From positions 130,747-194,746 of the forward strand of contig JAJPKF010000019.1 in NCBI GenBank assembly GCA_021323865.1: a stretch of 64,000 nt of DNA. Reading direction: 5' to 3'. The position numbers and the translations under genes were made by a program. Of this stretch, positions 9,125 to 53,094 are shown one piece after another. The notes under the pieces are model-generated. The model was given only the letters and a program-made list of their open reading frames with translations. It was not told where the DNA came from and searched no databases. The DNA comes from Pseudomonadota bacterium (GTDB lineage Bacteria; Chloroflexota; UBA5177; JAJPKF01). How positions within the stretch are numbered: position 1 is the first letter of the stretch; each line of letters begins with the position of its first letter.

Positions 9125-10216
9125 CTACTTGAGGATCTGTCCGTCGTGAGTCACGCAGGCGCCTTGGATAATCTCGTCGTCGAAGTCCAGGTGCAGATTT
9201 CCCTCCTGAACCAGCAACGACACGAAGCTGCTTACGTTTCGAGACAGCATCTGGCTGGCTTGGGTGGCGGCCTGGGCCGGTAGGTTGCGCGGACCCACGA
9301 TCGTTACTCCATGGGCAACCACGGTCTCGCCGGCTTTGGTCAGCTCGCAATTGCCGCCCTGCTCCGCCGCCAGGTCGACGATGACGGCGCCCGGCTTCAT
9401 GCGCTGGATCATTTCCTCACTGATGAGAATTGGGGCAGGCTTTCCGGGAATCAGCGCCGTGGTGATGATCGCGTCCACCGTCGCGAGGTGCTCTCCGATC
9501 GCCTCCTGCTCACGCCGCAGGAACTCCTCGCCTACATCGCGGGCGTATCCTCCCTCGGTGCCTTCGACCTGAAGCTCCGGCGGCATCTCGACGAACGTAG
9601 CCCCCACGCTCTGCACCTGCTCCCGCACCTCGGGTCGGGTATCGAAGCCGAAGGTCATCGCTCCCAGCCGTTTGGCCGTCGCCAGCGCTTGGAGACCGGC
9701 GACGCCGGCCCCCAGCACCAGCACCCGACAGGGAGGCTGGGTGCCGGCGGCCGTAATCAGCATGGGGAACATGCGTTTGGATGCCTCAGCCGCCAGCAGA
9801 ACCGCCCGGTAGCCGGCGATGGTGCTCATGGACGAGAGCGCGTCCATGGACTGAGCGCGGGTAATGCGCGGAATTGACTCGAGGGCGAATGAGGTCACCC
9901 GGTGATTGGCCAGCTGTGCGAGCAGCTCCCGATTCCGAAGAGGATCGAGGAAGCCGATGAGGATGGAAGCTTCGGGGAGCGCTTGAATCTCCGACTCAGA
10001 AGGAGGTCGGGCGACCACCGCGATTGCGGTAGTTTGCGCGAGCTGGGATGCGGGCACGATATTTGCTCCCGCCGATGAGTACGCGTCGTCAGGAAAGTTC
10101 GCTTGGAAGCCCGCGCCTACCTCGACCCGTACGGAGACTCCAATCTTGGTCAGGCGTGGCACATCGTCGGGAACCAATGCCACTCGCGTCTCATCGGGCT
10201 GGGTTTCTCGGCGCAC
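9125..10216 (-). CDS. pntAA: NAD(P) transhydrogenase subunit alpha part 1 (AlaDH/PNT domain)
   Basis: 363 aa; AlaDH/PNT N- and C-domains, 'VLVLGAGVAGLQA' NAD-binding loop. Confidence 0.85.
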   Translation of the reverse strand: MRRETQPDETRVALVPDDVPRLTKIGVSVRVEVGAGFQANFPDDAYSSAGANIVPASQLAQTTAIAVVARPPSESEIQALPEASILIGFLDPLRNRELLAQLANHRVTSFALESIPRITRAQSMDALSSMSTIAGYRAVLLAAEASKRMFPMLITAAGTQPPCRVLVLGAGVAGLQALATAKRLGAMTFGFDTRPEVREQVQSVGATFVEMPPELQVEGTEGGYARDVGEEFLRREQEAIGEHLATVDAIITTALIPGKPAPILISEEMIQRMKPGAVIVDLAAEQGGNCELTKAGETVVAHGVTIVGPRNLPAQAATQASQMLSRNVSSFVSLLVQEGNLHLDFDDEIIQGACVTHDGQILK

Positions 10217-10391
10217 GGCCAGAACCGGGGCCGGCCCGGTATGAGCCGGCGTCTCTTCAGACAGTTATCCGCCTCCTTCGCAGCGGCCACGAACGGCTCG
10301 CGGGTGGGGACGACCATGGCAGTATAGACGCTGGCTCCGGCGTTGCTATTCGGGCCGCCAGCCGGTGGGCGCTCCTGCCTCCGGTTGCCGG

Positions 10392-49430: not shown

Positions 49431-50486
49431 TCAGCTGTCACTCATAGACTGGTGGTCGATACGGCCTCGATGAAAGTCGACCACGGCCTCGACGAGTGGT
49501 CCGGCTCCAAATCGGAAGGTGTCGGTTGCCGGCAGGGCCGTTTCGGCGCCAATCGATGCCACCGTGGCGCGTGCGGCGGTCTCTGAAAGCCCGAGGGTGT
49601 TCACGGCCACGCCGATGACGGCGGCCGGATGGATCCAGCCGGCCGCGGCCTCGTGCATCTCGATCAGCTCGAGCGCCGAGGGGATGTCAACCGTGTAGTC
49701 CTCGATGTAATCTCGCGCCGGCATGACCGTCAAGATCATGGCATCAGGCTGGGAGCCGTGGATCAGGGCCAGTGTCACACCCGAATAGGCGGGATGAAGC
49801 AGTGAGCCTTGGCCCTCCACCAGAACGATGTCATGCTTCTCGGACGCTCTCAGAACCTCCTGCTCAATCGCCCCCGCCATGAAGTCGCCGACGACCCGAT
49901 CCAGCGGAACGCCGTTACCTGCGATCATCATGCCCGTTTGTCCCGTGGCCAGGAACACGGCATCGGTACCCCGATCTTTTGCCTCACGCTCGATGTCGAG
50001 TGCCACCGACATTTTGCCCACGGCACAATCACTTCCCACGAAGGTGATCACCGTGCTTGCGGATCGGTGGCTCTGGCCGGTCGCAACCTCAGTCAAGGTG
50101 GGAGGCTTTCGCACATCCACCAGGTCGGTTCCAGCATCCGCGGCGGCTGTTGCCAGCTCCGGATCGTCGGCCAGGAACTGATGGAGCCCTGAGACTACCG
50201 TTAGGCCGGCCCTGATCGCCTGCAGAACGACCCGCCTCCACTCAGGAGGGAGCATTCCGCCCCGGGTGGCCACACCGATCAGTAGCGTGTCCGGCCGGTG
50301 GTGCATAGCGGCGTCGAGCGTCGAGACGATCGGCGTGCTACCGCCCAGACCCACCACCTCACCCGTGGTCTTCCCCGCGTTCGATCCGTCAATCAGGGCA
50401 ACGACTTCATCCGTCCGATAGCGCAAGATGCCCATGGCAGTCTTGCCGAAGTGGAAGTCGAGGTGGCCGTCGGCCAGCACCGCCAC
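49431..50486 (-). CDS. DUF1611 domain-containing protein
   Basis: 351 aa; N-terminal Rossmann-like plus C-terminal P-loop-like 'VGSDCAVGKMS' arrangement typical of DUF1611. Confidence 0.55.
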   Translation of the reverse strand: MAVLADGHLDFHFGKTAMGILRYRTDEVVALIDGSNAGKTTGEVVGLGGSTPIVSTLDAAMHHRPDTLLIGVATRGGMLPPEWRRVVLQAIRAGLTVVSGLHQFLADDPELATAAADAGTDLVDVRKPPTLTEVATGQSHRSASTVITFVGSDCAVGKMSVALDIEREAKDRGTDAVFLATGQTGMMIAGNGVPLDRVVGDFMAGAIEQEVLRASEKHDIVLVEGQGSLLHPAYSGVTLALIHGSQPDAMILTVMPARDYIEDYTVDIPSALELIEMHEAAAGWIHPAAVIGVAVNTLGLSETAARATVASIGAETALPATDTFRFGAGPLVEAVVDFHRGRIDHQSMSDS

Positions 50487-50529
50487 CCGCCGGCCCTCCA
50501 GTGATTTGATGGCTGGCTGTCTCCTTCTG

Positions 50530-51192
50530 CTAGGCTTCTTCTCGGGCCTCTCCCATGCCCGTGGTGGCAGGGAGCGATGTGTTGGACTGTTGTGCCGGGG
50601 ACCTGCCGGCGCTTGGCTGCAGCGTCTGACGCCAAACGTGGTAGATCCGCTGAAGGGCCGTGGCAGCAGTCAGAGCGACCAGGAGAATGAGAACCGGAAC
50701 AAGGATACCCAGCAGCAAGCCGAGGCCGAGAATAATGATCCGCTCGGGTCGCGGCAGAAGGCCCACCTTACACTCCAGACCCAATCCCTCAGCCCGAGCA
50801 CGGGTGTAACTGATCATGAACGATCCGACCAGGAACGCCAGCAAGAGAACAACGGCAGTCGTATTGTGGTGAACGGTGTAGGTGTAGGTCAGTCCGACGA
50901 CAATGGCCGCCTCGCTATAGCGGTCCAGAACCGAATCAAAGAAGGCGCCAAAAGTTGATTGCGACTGAGTGATCCTGGCGAGGGCGCCATCAAGCATGTC
51001 CGCGGCCCCCGCGAGCAGTAGCAGAACTCCGCCCAAGCGAAGGTTGCCGGTGGCGAGAACATAGGCGACGCCAACATTGAGGCCGAAGCCGAGCACGCTG
51101 ACCATGTTTGGCGTGAGTCCGACGCGGGCGAGCGGTCGAACGACGAGCTCGGCCATGCGCCGGCCCCAAGCCTGGACGCCTGAGCTGAACAT
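50530..51192 (-). CDS. CDP-alcohol phosphatidyltransferase (phosphatidylinositol-phosphate synthase-like)
   Basis: 220 aa; motif D-x2-DG-x2-AR-x8-G-x3-D-x3-D ('ADMLDGALARITQSQSTFGAFFDSVLD'); 3-nt spacing after pimA-like gene. Confidence 0.75.
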   Translation of the reverse strand: MFSSGVQAWGRRMAELVVRPLARVGLTPNMVSVLGFGLNVGVAYVLATGNLRLGGVLLLLAGAADMLDGALARITQSQSTFGAFFDSVLDRYSEAAIVVGLTYTYTVHHNTTAVVLLLAFLVGSFMISYTRARAEGLGLECKVGLLPRPERIIILGLGLLLGILVPVLILLVALTAATALQRIYHVWRQTLQPSAGRSPAQQSNTSLPATTGMGEAREEA

Positions 51193-51195
51193 GGG

Positions 51196-52383
51196 TTAGC
51201 CGGAGGGCGCGATCGTGATCGCGGTCTTGCCTGGAGAGAGGAGGTTGGACCAGGCAGGGCTTTCGTTCTCCGAGAGTCGAGCTCGCTCGCCGTAGAAGTG
51301 CAGGATGCGTTGGGCGATCTGCGGCCAGGCGAAATGGTGAGCCCAGGCCTGGCCTGCCGTGCCCATCTCGGATCTCAGTGAGGGATCCTGCAGCAGCTGA
51401 CAGATCGCGTCCGCCAAGGCTTGCTCGTTTCTTGGTGGAACCAGCAGCCCTTGCTTGCCGTGCCCCACCACGTCTCGATAGCCGTCAATGTCTGAAGCGA
51501 CGATGGCTACACCCGAAGCCATGGCTTCCAGGAGAACGATGCCGAAGCTTTCTCCTCCGGTGGCCGGCGAACAGAACACGTCGGCGCTCCTATATAAGGA
51601 GGGCAACACGGAGTCGGGCTGCCAGCCGAGGAAGATGATGTCGCGCAGGCCGTGGGTCTCGACATAGCCACGATAGCGGTCGCGCCCCCAGTCTCCGGCG
51701 CCCGCCACGACGATGCGGGCTTCAGGGAAGGCGTTCTTTATGGCCGGATAGGCCCGGATGAGGTATCCCAATCCCTTACGCTTTTCGGGCCGGCCAACGA
51801 AGAGGATGTTCGGTCGCCCATCGCTCAGTTCGGCAAGCGGTGAGGCAGACGCGAAGCGTTCGTAGTCGACGCCGTTGGGGATGATGGTGTACCGGGCCTG
51901 AAAATACTGTTGCACGAACTTCTTGGAGGCTCGCGAGACAGCAATACGCCCATCGAGATTCATGAATACGCGCTTCAACACGGGGCGTCCATAGAAATAG
52001 CCGTAGTAGGAGCCGCGGTGGGCATGGAACGTCCCGATGTTCAGGGCGTCTGAATAGCGGAGGATGGTTGGCGGGAGCGCGGGCATGAGGGGCTCGTGGG
52101 CGTGGACCACATCGAACTGCTCGGCTCGGAGGATGTCGCGCACCCGGCGAGCCAGCCGGAACGACAAAGTGATGCGGGCGATGGAGCCGTTGGCCCGCAC
52201 CCGGGTGACCCTCCCGACCCGATAGACGTTGTCCATCTGCTTCTCGATTTGACGGTTGGATGACGGCGCAATGATGCGGACGTCATGACCCAGATCGAGG
52301 AACTCCTGCTGGAGGTGCAGGACGTGCTGGGTGACTCCACCGGGATAGGGAAAGTCGTAGGGAGAGACAAGGGCGATTTTCAG
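51196..52383 (-). CDS. pimA: GT4 glycosyltransferase, phosphatidylinositol alpha-mannosyltransferase (PimA)-like; non-canonical start
   Basis: ORF track starts at ATG 52236, but in-frame upstream codons encode 'KIALVSPYDFPYPGGVTQHVLHLQQEFLDLGHDVRIIAPSS…', the conserved GT4/PimA N-terminus; bounded by TAG at 52384..52386; CTG at 52383 has GGAGG 7 nt upstream. Confidence 0.65.
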   Translation of the reverse strand: MKIALVSPYDFPYPGGVTQHVLHLQQEFLDLGHDVRIIAPSSNRQIEKQMDNVYRVGRVTRVRANGSIARITLSFRLARRVRDILRAEQFDVVHAHEPLMPALPPTILRYSDALNIGTFHAHRGSYYGYFYGRPVLKRVFMNLDGRIAVSRASKKFVQQYFQARYTIIPNGVDYERFASASPLAELSDGRPNILFVGRPEKRKGLGYLIRAYPAIKNAFPEARIVVAGAGDWGRDRYRGYVETHGLRDIIFLGWQPDSVLPSLYRSADVFCSPATGGESFGIVLLEAMASGVAIVASDIDGYRDVVGHGKQGLLVPPRNEQALADAICQLLQDPSLRSEMGTAGQAWAHHFAWPQIAQRILHFYGERARLSENESPAWSNLLSPGKTAITIAPSG

Positions 52384-52520
52384 CTATGCGCCTCCGACCG
52401 AGGGCCGAACACCGCGGATGAACGAGACGGCAGGCAGCATACGCCGATGAGGATGCGGCCTTTCCCGCCGGAAAATCGGTGAGTCATTCTAGCAATGTGG
52501 CCGAAATGCGACGGGAAGCG

Positions 52521-52553
52521 GCCAAAAGGAAAGGGCCCGCATTACGCGGGCCC
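52521..52553 (-). terminator. rho-independent terminator for 52576..53094 gene
   Basis: GGGCCCGC-ATTAC-GCGGGCCC hairpin; on minus strand followed by CTTTCCTTTTGG. Confidence 0.55.
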
Positions 52554-52575
52554 CTTTGTCGATACGGAGGTTGTT

Positions 52576-53094
52576 CTAGTGCTTGCCCTTCTTGTGGGGA
52601 AGGACCATGTACATGCGCGGATGCTTGCTGGCGTACTGACCCTTGGAGTCCTTCCACAGCAGCGTCCACTTGCCCTTTTCCTTGCCCTTCTTGTGGAAGA
52701 CGTAGACGTCGAAGCCGTCCTTGTTGAAGGTAATGGGCTCTTTGAGGTCGTGGACCTTCTTGCCGGTAACGGAGTCATACATGAGGATGCGGAAGCACTG
52801 CGCGCCCTTGGGGGAAGCCTTCGGGCAGGCAACCGTAGACGTCACGACGTTGATCGGATCTTTGCCGTGAGGCCGGAAGTTGAACGACTGGCCCTGGGGC
52901 TTGCCGTTCTTACCCTTCTTTCCGCCCTTGACGCCCGGAACGTGGGTCTTCTTGAAATGGCCCGGCTTTGCCGTGCCGCAATTCCCCTTCGAATAGCCCT
53001 TGGCCGAGCATGCGGAGGCGACCCCGGATGATGTGGCGGCGGCGAACGCGGTCATAGGAACGATTAAGACAAGTGCTGCGAGGACCTTCTTCAC
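52576..53094 (-). CDS. small secreted lysine-rich protein, 4 Cys (hypothetical)
   Basis: 172 aa; signal peptide MKKVLAALVLIVPMTAFAAA; about 19% Lys (KGGKKGKNGK, KKGKEKGK); native GC-rich codon usage. Confidence 0.55.
   Translation of the reverse strand: MKKVLAALVLIVPMTAFAAATSSGVASACSAKGYSKGNCGTAKPGHFKKTHVPGVKGGKKGKNGKPQGQSFNFRPHGKDPINVVTSTVACPKASPKGAQCFRILMYDSVTGKKVHDLKEPITFNKDGFDVYVFHKKGKEKGKWTLLWKDSKGQYASKHPRMYMVLPHKKGKH

Follow-up and report, generated by a model that had tools for sequence, protein, structure and literature searches.

At which codon does translation begin in a bacterial glycosyltransferase gene whose conserved N-terminus lies ahead of its first in-frame ATG, GTG, or TTG? 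The question is raised by a GT4/PimA-like gene on the minus strand of contig JAJPKF010000019.1, from an uncultured soil Chloroflexota bacterium, within a stretch of 64,000 nt (positions 130,747 to 194,746) that we call the window; all feature coordinates given below are window positions, and all features described are on the minus strand. Comparison with related loci points to a CTG codon at 52383..52381 as the translation start, and we put the probability of this reading at about 0.85. The corrected coding sequence, 52383..51196, would comprise 395 codons plus a TAA stop and encode a GT4 PimA-like glycosyltransferase.

The minus-strand start region reads ...ggtcGGAGGcgcaTAGCTGaaaatcgcccttgtctctccctacgac... 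and carries a GGAGG Shine-Dalgarno core (52395..52391) ahead of the CTG, across a 7-nt spacer (cgcatag) whose last three bases form an in-frame TAG (52386..52384) abutting the CTG. With this stop in frame directly before the CTG, no in-frame start further upstream is possible in this genome. The 48 codons that follow the CTG encode KIALVSPYDFPYPGGVTQHVLHLQQEFLDLGHDVRIIAPSSNRQIEKQ and include no ATG, GTG, or TTG; the first in-frame canonical codon is ATG 52236, which opens the 346-aa open reading frame (ORF) 51196..52236 of the public gene call (P0001). ATG 52236 lacks a Shine-Dalgarno sequence, and GGAGG-led canonical starts are present at other genes of the window. An earlier interpretation made from the letters of the window, the sequence-only reading, had described this arrangement of GGAGG, TAG, and CTG in a stretch free of ATG, GTG, and TTG, and reading the sequence confirmed it in every detail.

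The same reading proposed that the codons upstream of ATG 52236 encode a PimA N-terminus, and both Pfam and PDB alignments agree. Codons 2-49 (52380..52237; KIALVSPYDFPYPGGV...) are predicted to form the N-terminal strand-loop-helix-strand of the GT-B N-domain, which is absent from the public 346-aa call. With the 49 extra codons the protein matches profile positions 1-170 of Pfam Glyco_transf_4, and without them the match begins at position 44. The best solved relative is Mycobacterium smegmatis PimA (PDB 2GEJ, 4N9W; phmmer E = 5e-63, query residues 2-364), and the alignment starts at query residue 2, with KIALVSPYDFPYPGGVTQHV against RIGMVCPYSFDVPGGVQSHV, so that the CTG sits where PimA has Met1. 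The alignment keeps PGGV, TFH, GR..RKG, and GGESFG..EAMA (the E-x7-E region); the PGGV loop, the His of TFH, GR...RKG, and E-x7-E are what we take to be the functional motifs of the PimA structures. No equivalog cut-off was reached in NCBIfam, where the best match was TIGR04047 (MSMEG_0565 family) at 134.5 bits against a cut-off of 259.85. Judged by sequence, the protein is a full-length GT4/GT-B enzyme most similar to PimA. Because no equivalog was reached and a PimA specificity would be a prediction, we use only the label "PimA-like", as the sequence-only reading did, and this label is upheld by the full-length similarity to PimA and by the gene context described below.

We compared the DNA at the homologous codon in 15 loci of the clade, including the window, that come from differing samples and projects. 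The closest relatives in a protein search were 76-85% identical and belong to uncultured Chloroflexota, chiefly from soil metagenomes. Their proteins show L at the start position (...EAPLKIALVSPYDF...), after N-terminal extensions that vary in length and sequence, and some relatives' calls begin instead further inside the protein, at "MTQHV" or "LVSPYDF". At the homologous codon, 11 of the 15 loci have CTG (the window, L001/L031, L002, L038, L062, L063, L064, L065, L068, L069, and L072), 2 have TTG (L066 and L071), 1 has GTG (L067), and 1 has ATG (L070). In five of the CTG loci (the window, L038, L062, L063, and L068), no in-frame ATG, GTG, or TTG lies between the upstream stop and the CTG, and L062 and L063 have that stop 7 codons ahead of the CTG. 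Where upstream canonical codons are present in other loci, they are unconserved in position, and several are an "NTG" made by the base preceding GGAGG. At this very codon, ATG or GTG is found in distant orthologs (up to 55% identity) from Chloroflexia, Anaerolineae, Dehalococcoidia, Actinomycetes, and others, which marks it as the ancestral start. The sequence-only reading had held that ATG in orthologs at this position would point to an assembly error. That criterion is too simple, as the codons of the distant orthologs reveal where the ancestral start lay; the closest relatives share the CTG. One distant GT4 ortholog also has CTG at its aligned first codon (L040, position 2206; Ga0193723_1005712, 38% identity); an in-frame ATG lies 3 codons upstream of it, so a CTG start is not needed there.

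A leucine codon inside a longer protein and a start codon leave different traces, and the traces at codon 1 argue for a start. Codon 1 is NTG in 15/15 loci, and the encoded residue varies between L, V, and M through the first base alone. Among internal Leu codons of 13 full-length genes, 37% are CTG and 47.7% are CTG or TTG; at the 21 columns of invariant Leu, NTG occurs in 4-10 of the 13 sequences, and no column (0/21) is restricted to NTG. The chance that thirteen Leu codons would all be NTG is ~0.477^13, or ~7e-5, with relatedness ignored. On these comparisons codon 1 is constrained as a start (NTG) and not as leucine. Coding signal changes at the same place: over codons 2-49 the majority fraction by codon position is 0.92/0.95/0.57, and among relatives 49% of codon pairs differ synonymously and 15% non-synonymously, whereas 92% of the differences at in-frame triplets -16 to -5 are "non-synonymous". 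Codon periodicity and synonymous excess thus begin exactly at the CTG codon. Upstream of it the alignment holds only two conserved islands, GGAGG and a block ~100 nt further upstream, and its indels are not multiples of three. The GGAGG has a majority fraction of 0.90 amid otherwise unconserved DNA and lies 5 nt from the start codon in 12/15 loci; the 7-nt spacer of the window is 2 nt longer than in all relatives, and the abutting TAG arises from this difference.

The gene has been kept functional over a long divergence. At 4-fold degenerate sites, pairwise identity in the crown clade is 0.35 (range 0.27-0.41), a saturated value, and the proteins are still 76-85% identical; this combination indicates strong purifying selection on functional genes, not pseudogenes. 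In a neighbour-joining tree (no bootstrap), the TTG locus L071 and the ATG locus L070 are basal and the crown is CTG, with one nested crown subclade holding GTG (L067), TTG (L066), and CTG (L069). The most parsimonious history on this tree would be a single change to CTG followed by two reversions. CTG would then have taken over from a canonical NTG start near the base of the soil Chloroflexota clade and have been retained while synonymous sites became saturated. The C at the first base is kept in 9/11 full-length crown sequences, and equal conservation is found at 6.4% of 109 4-fold sites and at 10.7% of those with C as majority base. The GGAGG spacing is 11 nt in the GTG locus L067, and GGAGG is degraded to GGATG in the ATG locus L070; a trade-off between start-codon strength and Shine-Dalgarno strength is possible, with one locus for each case.

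In the mechanism that we propose, the GGAGG Shine-Dalgarno sequence 7 nt upstream would position the 30S subunit at the CTG. Pairing between Shine-Dalgarno and anti-Shine-Dalgarno sequences puts the start codon, here CUG, in the P site, where initiator fMet-tRNA (anticodon CAU) would read it despite a first-base C-U mismatch. The product would start fMet-Lys-Ile-Ala-Leu-Val and have 395 residues, not 346, and we infer Met rather than Leu as its first residue. In Escherichia coli, CUG makes up 0.024% of start codons (PMC11497404) and gives about 0.9-2% of the expression obtained with AUG, with GUG at ~58% and UUG at ~30% (PMC11497404, 10.1101/063800), and excess IF3 inhibits initiation at non-canonical starts (PMC2268962). 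Because CUG is weak in E. coli and belongs to a class discriminated against by IF3, translation of the GT4 enzyme would be expected to be low and IF3-sensitive, and the full, well-spaced GGAGG probably offsets part of the weakness of the CTG. A weak start may serve as a translational throttle on what is likely a membrane-glycolipid enzyme; we infer both the low efficiency and any such regulatory role. CTG has been kept though a single transition would give the stronger TTG, which makes the gene a natural case for studying selection on weak starts.

Several points weigh against the CTG reading or narrow what it says. Support for the CTG start is comparative throughout, and the sequences compared are phylogenetically related, so that simple probabilities overstate their independence. 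The case for selection on CTG itself, rather than on any NTG, is suggestive. The efficiency figures were obtained in E. coli, and Chloroflexota may differ. Nor does mRNA folding around the start offer consistent help to a weak codon: partition-function calculations of accessibility from -60 to +40 in 14 loci gave no consistent opening at the Shine-Dalgarno sequence or start, with 0.25-0.55 unpaired, like the whole segment. Finally, some upstream reading frames stay open until they terminate at or over the CTG, and initiation could in principle be coupled to them.

The second conserved island is a 19-nt block, TTGCTAGAATGACTCACCG (52495..52477), which we read as a putative extended -10 promoter, with TGnTAGAAT at 52494..52486. 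It is kept ~90-105 nt upstream of the start in 13/15 loci and lies at 45 nt in L071 and 145 nt in L070; in TGnTAnAAT the T, the A, and the final T are invariant in 14 aligned loci, and L072 has TTAGAAT. An extended -10 promoter here would predict a 5' untranslated region (UTR) of ~95 nt. TGnTAnAAT is found once in the window, too seldom to mark it as the organism's usual promoter form. Conservation of the block runs ~10-20 nt past the hexamer (GACTCACCG..AATTTCCGG), and the block could also be an initial-transcribed or 5'-end RNA element, or a regulator site. Further upstream, a GC-rich hairpin read from the sequence, GGGGCCCGC-gtaat-GCGGGCCC followed by TTTCCTTTT (52554..52524; 8-9 bp, loop GTAAT), is likely the intrinsic terminator of the upstream 172-aa gene, which would make the GT4 gene the first in its own transcript. 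A promoter and terminator scan had no hit at the conserved block, and it did not list the GC hairpin because its T-run is interrupted. An Rfam scan of 52200-52700 returned only sub-threshold matches near the upstream terminator and no known leader RNA. The region may accordingly be read, in order, as terminator, promoter, ~95-nt UTR, Shine-Dalgarno sequence, and CTG.

Two upstream ORFs (uORFs) end at the CTG, and they underlie the alternative that survives best, namely that the CTG is the start but is fed mainly by termination-reinitiation from an upstream ORF. One is a +1-frame uORF of 35 codons (52487..52380), with its ATG at 52487 inside the conserved block and its TGA (52382..52380) overlapping the CTG as cTGA; the other, in this genome, is an in-frame uORF of 18 codons, MLPAVSFIRGVRPSVGGA (52440..52384), which runs from ATG 52440 to the TAG abutting the CTG, has no Shine-Dalgarno sequence, is unconserved in relatives, and is of uncertain significance. 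The TGA overlaps the start in 14/15 loci, but this overlap is automatic, as the start reads NTGA whenever codon 2 is the conserved Lys (AAR). In 13/14 loci the +1 frame stays free of stops over 26 or more upstream codons, with a median of 46 against 20.5 and 29.5 in the other frames, yet frame 2 is also open in 10/14 loci, and GC content by codon position in the UTR (0.58/0.63/0.66) does not show the coding-type periodicity of the gene (0.66/0.42/0.71). A triplet of the conserved block stands in the +1 frame, open to NTGA, in 9/15 loci and is ATG in 7 of those 9; against this, the block ATG is present in 10/15 loci and absent in 5/15, no Shine-Dalgarno sequence precedes any upstream-ORF ATG, and the fit of the block to an extended -10 promoter would place its ATG outside the transcript. 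A second candidate CTG in the window, at 10264 in a PntA-like gene described below, likewise directly follows a stop, that of a 17-codon ORF opened by an ATG. These statistics are post hoc and the loci related, and we regard reinitiation as the main route to the CTG as unlikely.

Direct initiation at CTG also has to be set against initiation two codons downstream, at the near-cognate Ile codon ATC (52377..52375), which the sequence-only reading had named beside the CTG and which we consider very unlikely. ATH codons initiate at ~1-2% of AUG in E. coli, like CUG (10.1101/063800), and codon 3 is ATH in 15/15 loci; Ile has only ATH codons, however, so this conservation is uninformative. An ATC start would lie 13 nt from GGAGG in the window and 11 nt from it in relatives, compared with 5-7 nt for the CTG. 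It also gives no reason for the strict NTG at codon 1, where CTC, CTT, and CTA never occur, and the relatives with ATG, GTG, or TTG, together with all distant orthologs, start at codon 1.

Two starts at ATG codons of the same frame, each taken alone or together, are more doubtful still: Met 52236, which would yield the 346-aa protein with no N-terminal motif, and ATG 52440 with readthrough of the TAG. Met 52236 is the first canonical start and the one chosen by gene callers, but relatives preserve the protein sequence of the 48 codons before Met50, which differ mostly at synonymous sites, hold the first strand and the Gly-rich PGGV loop, and align with PimA residues 2-50; as noted above, this ATG also has no Shine-Dalgarno sequence ahead of it. 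ATG 52440 is in frame with the gene, but sequence and frame upstream of the CTG are unconserved, the spacer differs by 2 nt from that of relatives, and L062 and L063, with their in-frame stop 7 codons upstream, have no start codon between it and the CTG. The data also speak against programmed stop-codon readthrough or recoding: the upstream triplets are unconserved, and frame and length vary.

In the remaining alternative, the CTG would stem from faulty sequencing or assembly, or from a recent mutation that inactivated an ATG or GTG start and left a pseudogene. This view draws a prior from the rarity of CTG starts (~0.024%, PMC11497404) and from the truncated public annotation and can be practically dismissed, for ten further, independent assemblies from various samples and projects share the CTG, a second assembly of the same genome (Logan, run SRR5579884) is identical to the window across 5,041 nt with TAG-CTG included, and the ORF is under strong purifying selection clade-wide. 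Of the explanations offered by the sequence-only reading, genuine initiation at CTG is thus the one strongly favoured by the comparative data, whereas base-call error and the ATC start are not.

A scan of the window for GGAGG-led starts turned up a second CTG candidate, in a PntA-like gene (NAD(P) transhydrogenase alpha; 10276..9125 including GGAGG). Its start sequence, gaaGGAGGcggaTAACTGtctgaagag, has the same layout of GGAGG, 7 nt, stop, and CTG (GGAGG 10276..10272, in-frame TAA 10267..10265, CTG 10264..10262) and agrees with the GT4 start at 13/15 bases; both follow GGAGGCG-N-ATA-R-CTG with the in-frame stop abutting. GTG 10216, the earliest canonical codon available, falls within the first strand and is not preceded by a Shine-Dalgarno sequence; the 352-aa public call, P0125, begins even later. 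Solved PntA structures (PDB) align from query residues 14-16, which are 1-3 residues upstream of GTG 10216. Relatives of the protein (60-69% identity) carry an acidic, Pro-rich N-extension of 12-14 residues, the same length as LSEETPAHTGPAPV, and in several of their JGI calls the first residue is given as L or V, which indicates a non-ATG start. The PntA-like gene probably starts at CTG 10264..10262, on less evidence than in the GT4 case. As a control, Pfam domain boundaries were examined for eight other genes with long start-less stretches; they flagged none and are too coarse for the PntA-like gene. Thus uORFs end at or over both candidate CTG starts (cTGA, TAG-CTG, and TAA-CTG; 52380..52487, 52384..52440, and 10265..10317); in the GT4 clade the uORF peptides are unconserved.

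Because two genes in one 64-kb window (GT4 at 52383, PntA-like at 10264) appear to use it, CTG may be a more frequent start in this lineage than elsewhere. In a stronger form, which we raise only tentatively and consider improbable on balance, the lineage would employ CTG as a regular minor start, at the percent level compared with the ~0.02% typical of bacteria. Within the window, starts with a full GGAGG and no upstream canonical alternative comprise 5 canonical and 2 CTG codons. In 54.5 kb of relatives' loci, no further GGAGG-led CTG starts were found, and a tRNA scan identified no tRNA gene in the window and thus no initiator tRNA there. If lineage-wide use were real, it would imply relaxed first-base discrimination (by IF3 or through the initiator tRNA anticodon stem, in which a C30-G40-type change would account for tolerance of CUG; PMC11497404) or a dedicated helper such as stop-adjacent uORFs. 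It would also be relevant to first-base discrimination at start codons by bacterial ribosomes, and gene callers would systematically truncate or over-extend such genes.

Public annotation of the GT4 clade already shows both kinds of miscall, as no public gene model of the CTG loci (P0002-P0020) has the correct N-terminus. Truncated models of 346, 378, 379, or 386 aa lose the first strand and the nucleotide-sugar-binding loop, and extended models of 398-436 aa include non-homologous residues; NCBI HZT95460.1 begins 4 codons too early, at a TTG that shares bases with the Shine-Dalgarno sequence. Homology-aware start calling that permits CTG would correct the annotation across the clade.

The gene context would suit a lipid glycosyltransferase. 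A CDP-alcohol phosphatidyltransferase gene (PF01066; 51192..50530) follows, with its ATG 3 nt after the GT4 stop, and a DUF1611 gene comes next in the window and usually also in relatives. CDP-OH_P_transf is directly downstream in 10/11 relatives whose locus reaches downstream and has called genes; the exception is L062, whose next gene runs off the contig and received no Pfam assignment. Of the 9 relatives with called upstream genes, 6 carry Lip_A_acyltrans (PatA-like) genes, one or two of them, immediately ahead of GT4, and no Lip_A_acyltrans homolog was found in the 64-kb window. Gene order in the window (compared over 50530..53094) differs from that in L065-L068, L071, and L072: the proteins encoded upstream of GT4 are a Lys-rich one of 172 aa, which is probably secreted, and one with DUF4012. 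The promoter-like block is retained. The GT4 and CDP-alcohol phosphatidyltransferase genes, with the PatA-like acyltransferases in relatives, resemble the mycobacterial phosphatidylinositol mannoside (PIM) locus. PIM-like gene sets, made up of GT4, CDP-alcohol phosphatidyltransferase, and DUF1611 genes and in relatives also PatA-like acyltransferases (49431..52383 in the window, and the loci of relatives), are widespread in Chloroflexota metagenome bins, and their content suggests inositol-phospholipid glycolipids outside Actinobacteria. PimA itself, the GDP-mannose-dependent phosphatidylinositol alpha-mannosyltransferase (PDB 2GEJ, 2GEK, 4N9W, 4NC9), is similar over the full GT4/GT-B length; it differs in belonging to Actinobacteria, with a canonical pimA start in mycobacteria, whereas the gene described here is from Chloroflexota and probably starts at CTG.

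Weak and shifting start codons are known from other systems. Belinky et al. (2017, PMC5622118) describe start-codon turnover with compensatory Shine-Dalgarno changes in prokaryotes for ATG, GTG, and TTG starts. The GT4 clade is alike in that the first base of NTG toggles and the CTG and TTG loci keep GGAGG at 5 nt, and its own compensation pattern rests on single loci and is anecdotal. E. coli offers near-cognate starts in infC (AUU), cdsA (a codon-2 CTG), and plasmid RepA (CTG) (PMC2830850, PMC11448367, PMC2268962). These resemble the GT4 case in combining a weak start with a Shine-Dalgarno sequence and in the low, IF3-sensitive expression to be expected; they differ in that autoregulation or a backup role was demonstrated there by experiment, and the GT4 case comes from sequence comparison.

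A full-text literature search for CTG start codons in Chloroflexi found nothing relevant. Conserved CTG starts as such have already been described, in rpsL across Deinococcus-Thermus, where the start is peptide-backed (PMC2830850), and in Deide_03051 of Deinococcus deserti, which was re-annotated to CTG since fold elements were missing (Baudet et al. 2010, PMC2830850). The conserved CTG start of the GT4 gene is a further case of this rare but known phenomenon. As in rpsL and Deide_03051, the CTG is conserved among relatives and was exposed by canonical models that cut fold elements; one of the Deinococcus-Thermus cases has an N-terminal peptide, whereas the GT4 case is known from comparison. 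The GT4 gene differs in its phylum, Chloroflexota, in encoding a lipid glycosyltransferase, and in the broader comparison that it allows, which spans 15 loci with synonymous sites at saturation and includes reversions to TTG, GTG, and ATG. It would serve as a clear example from nature of how a weak start can persist through long evolution.

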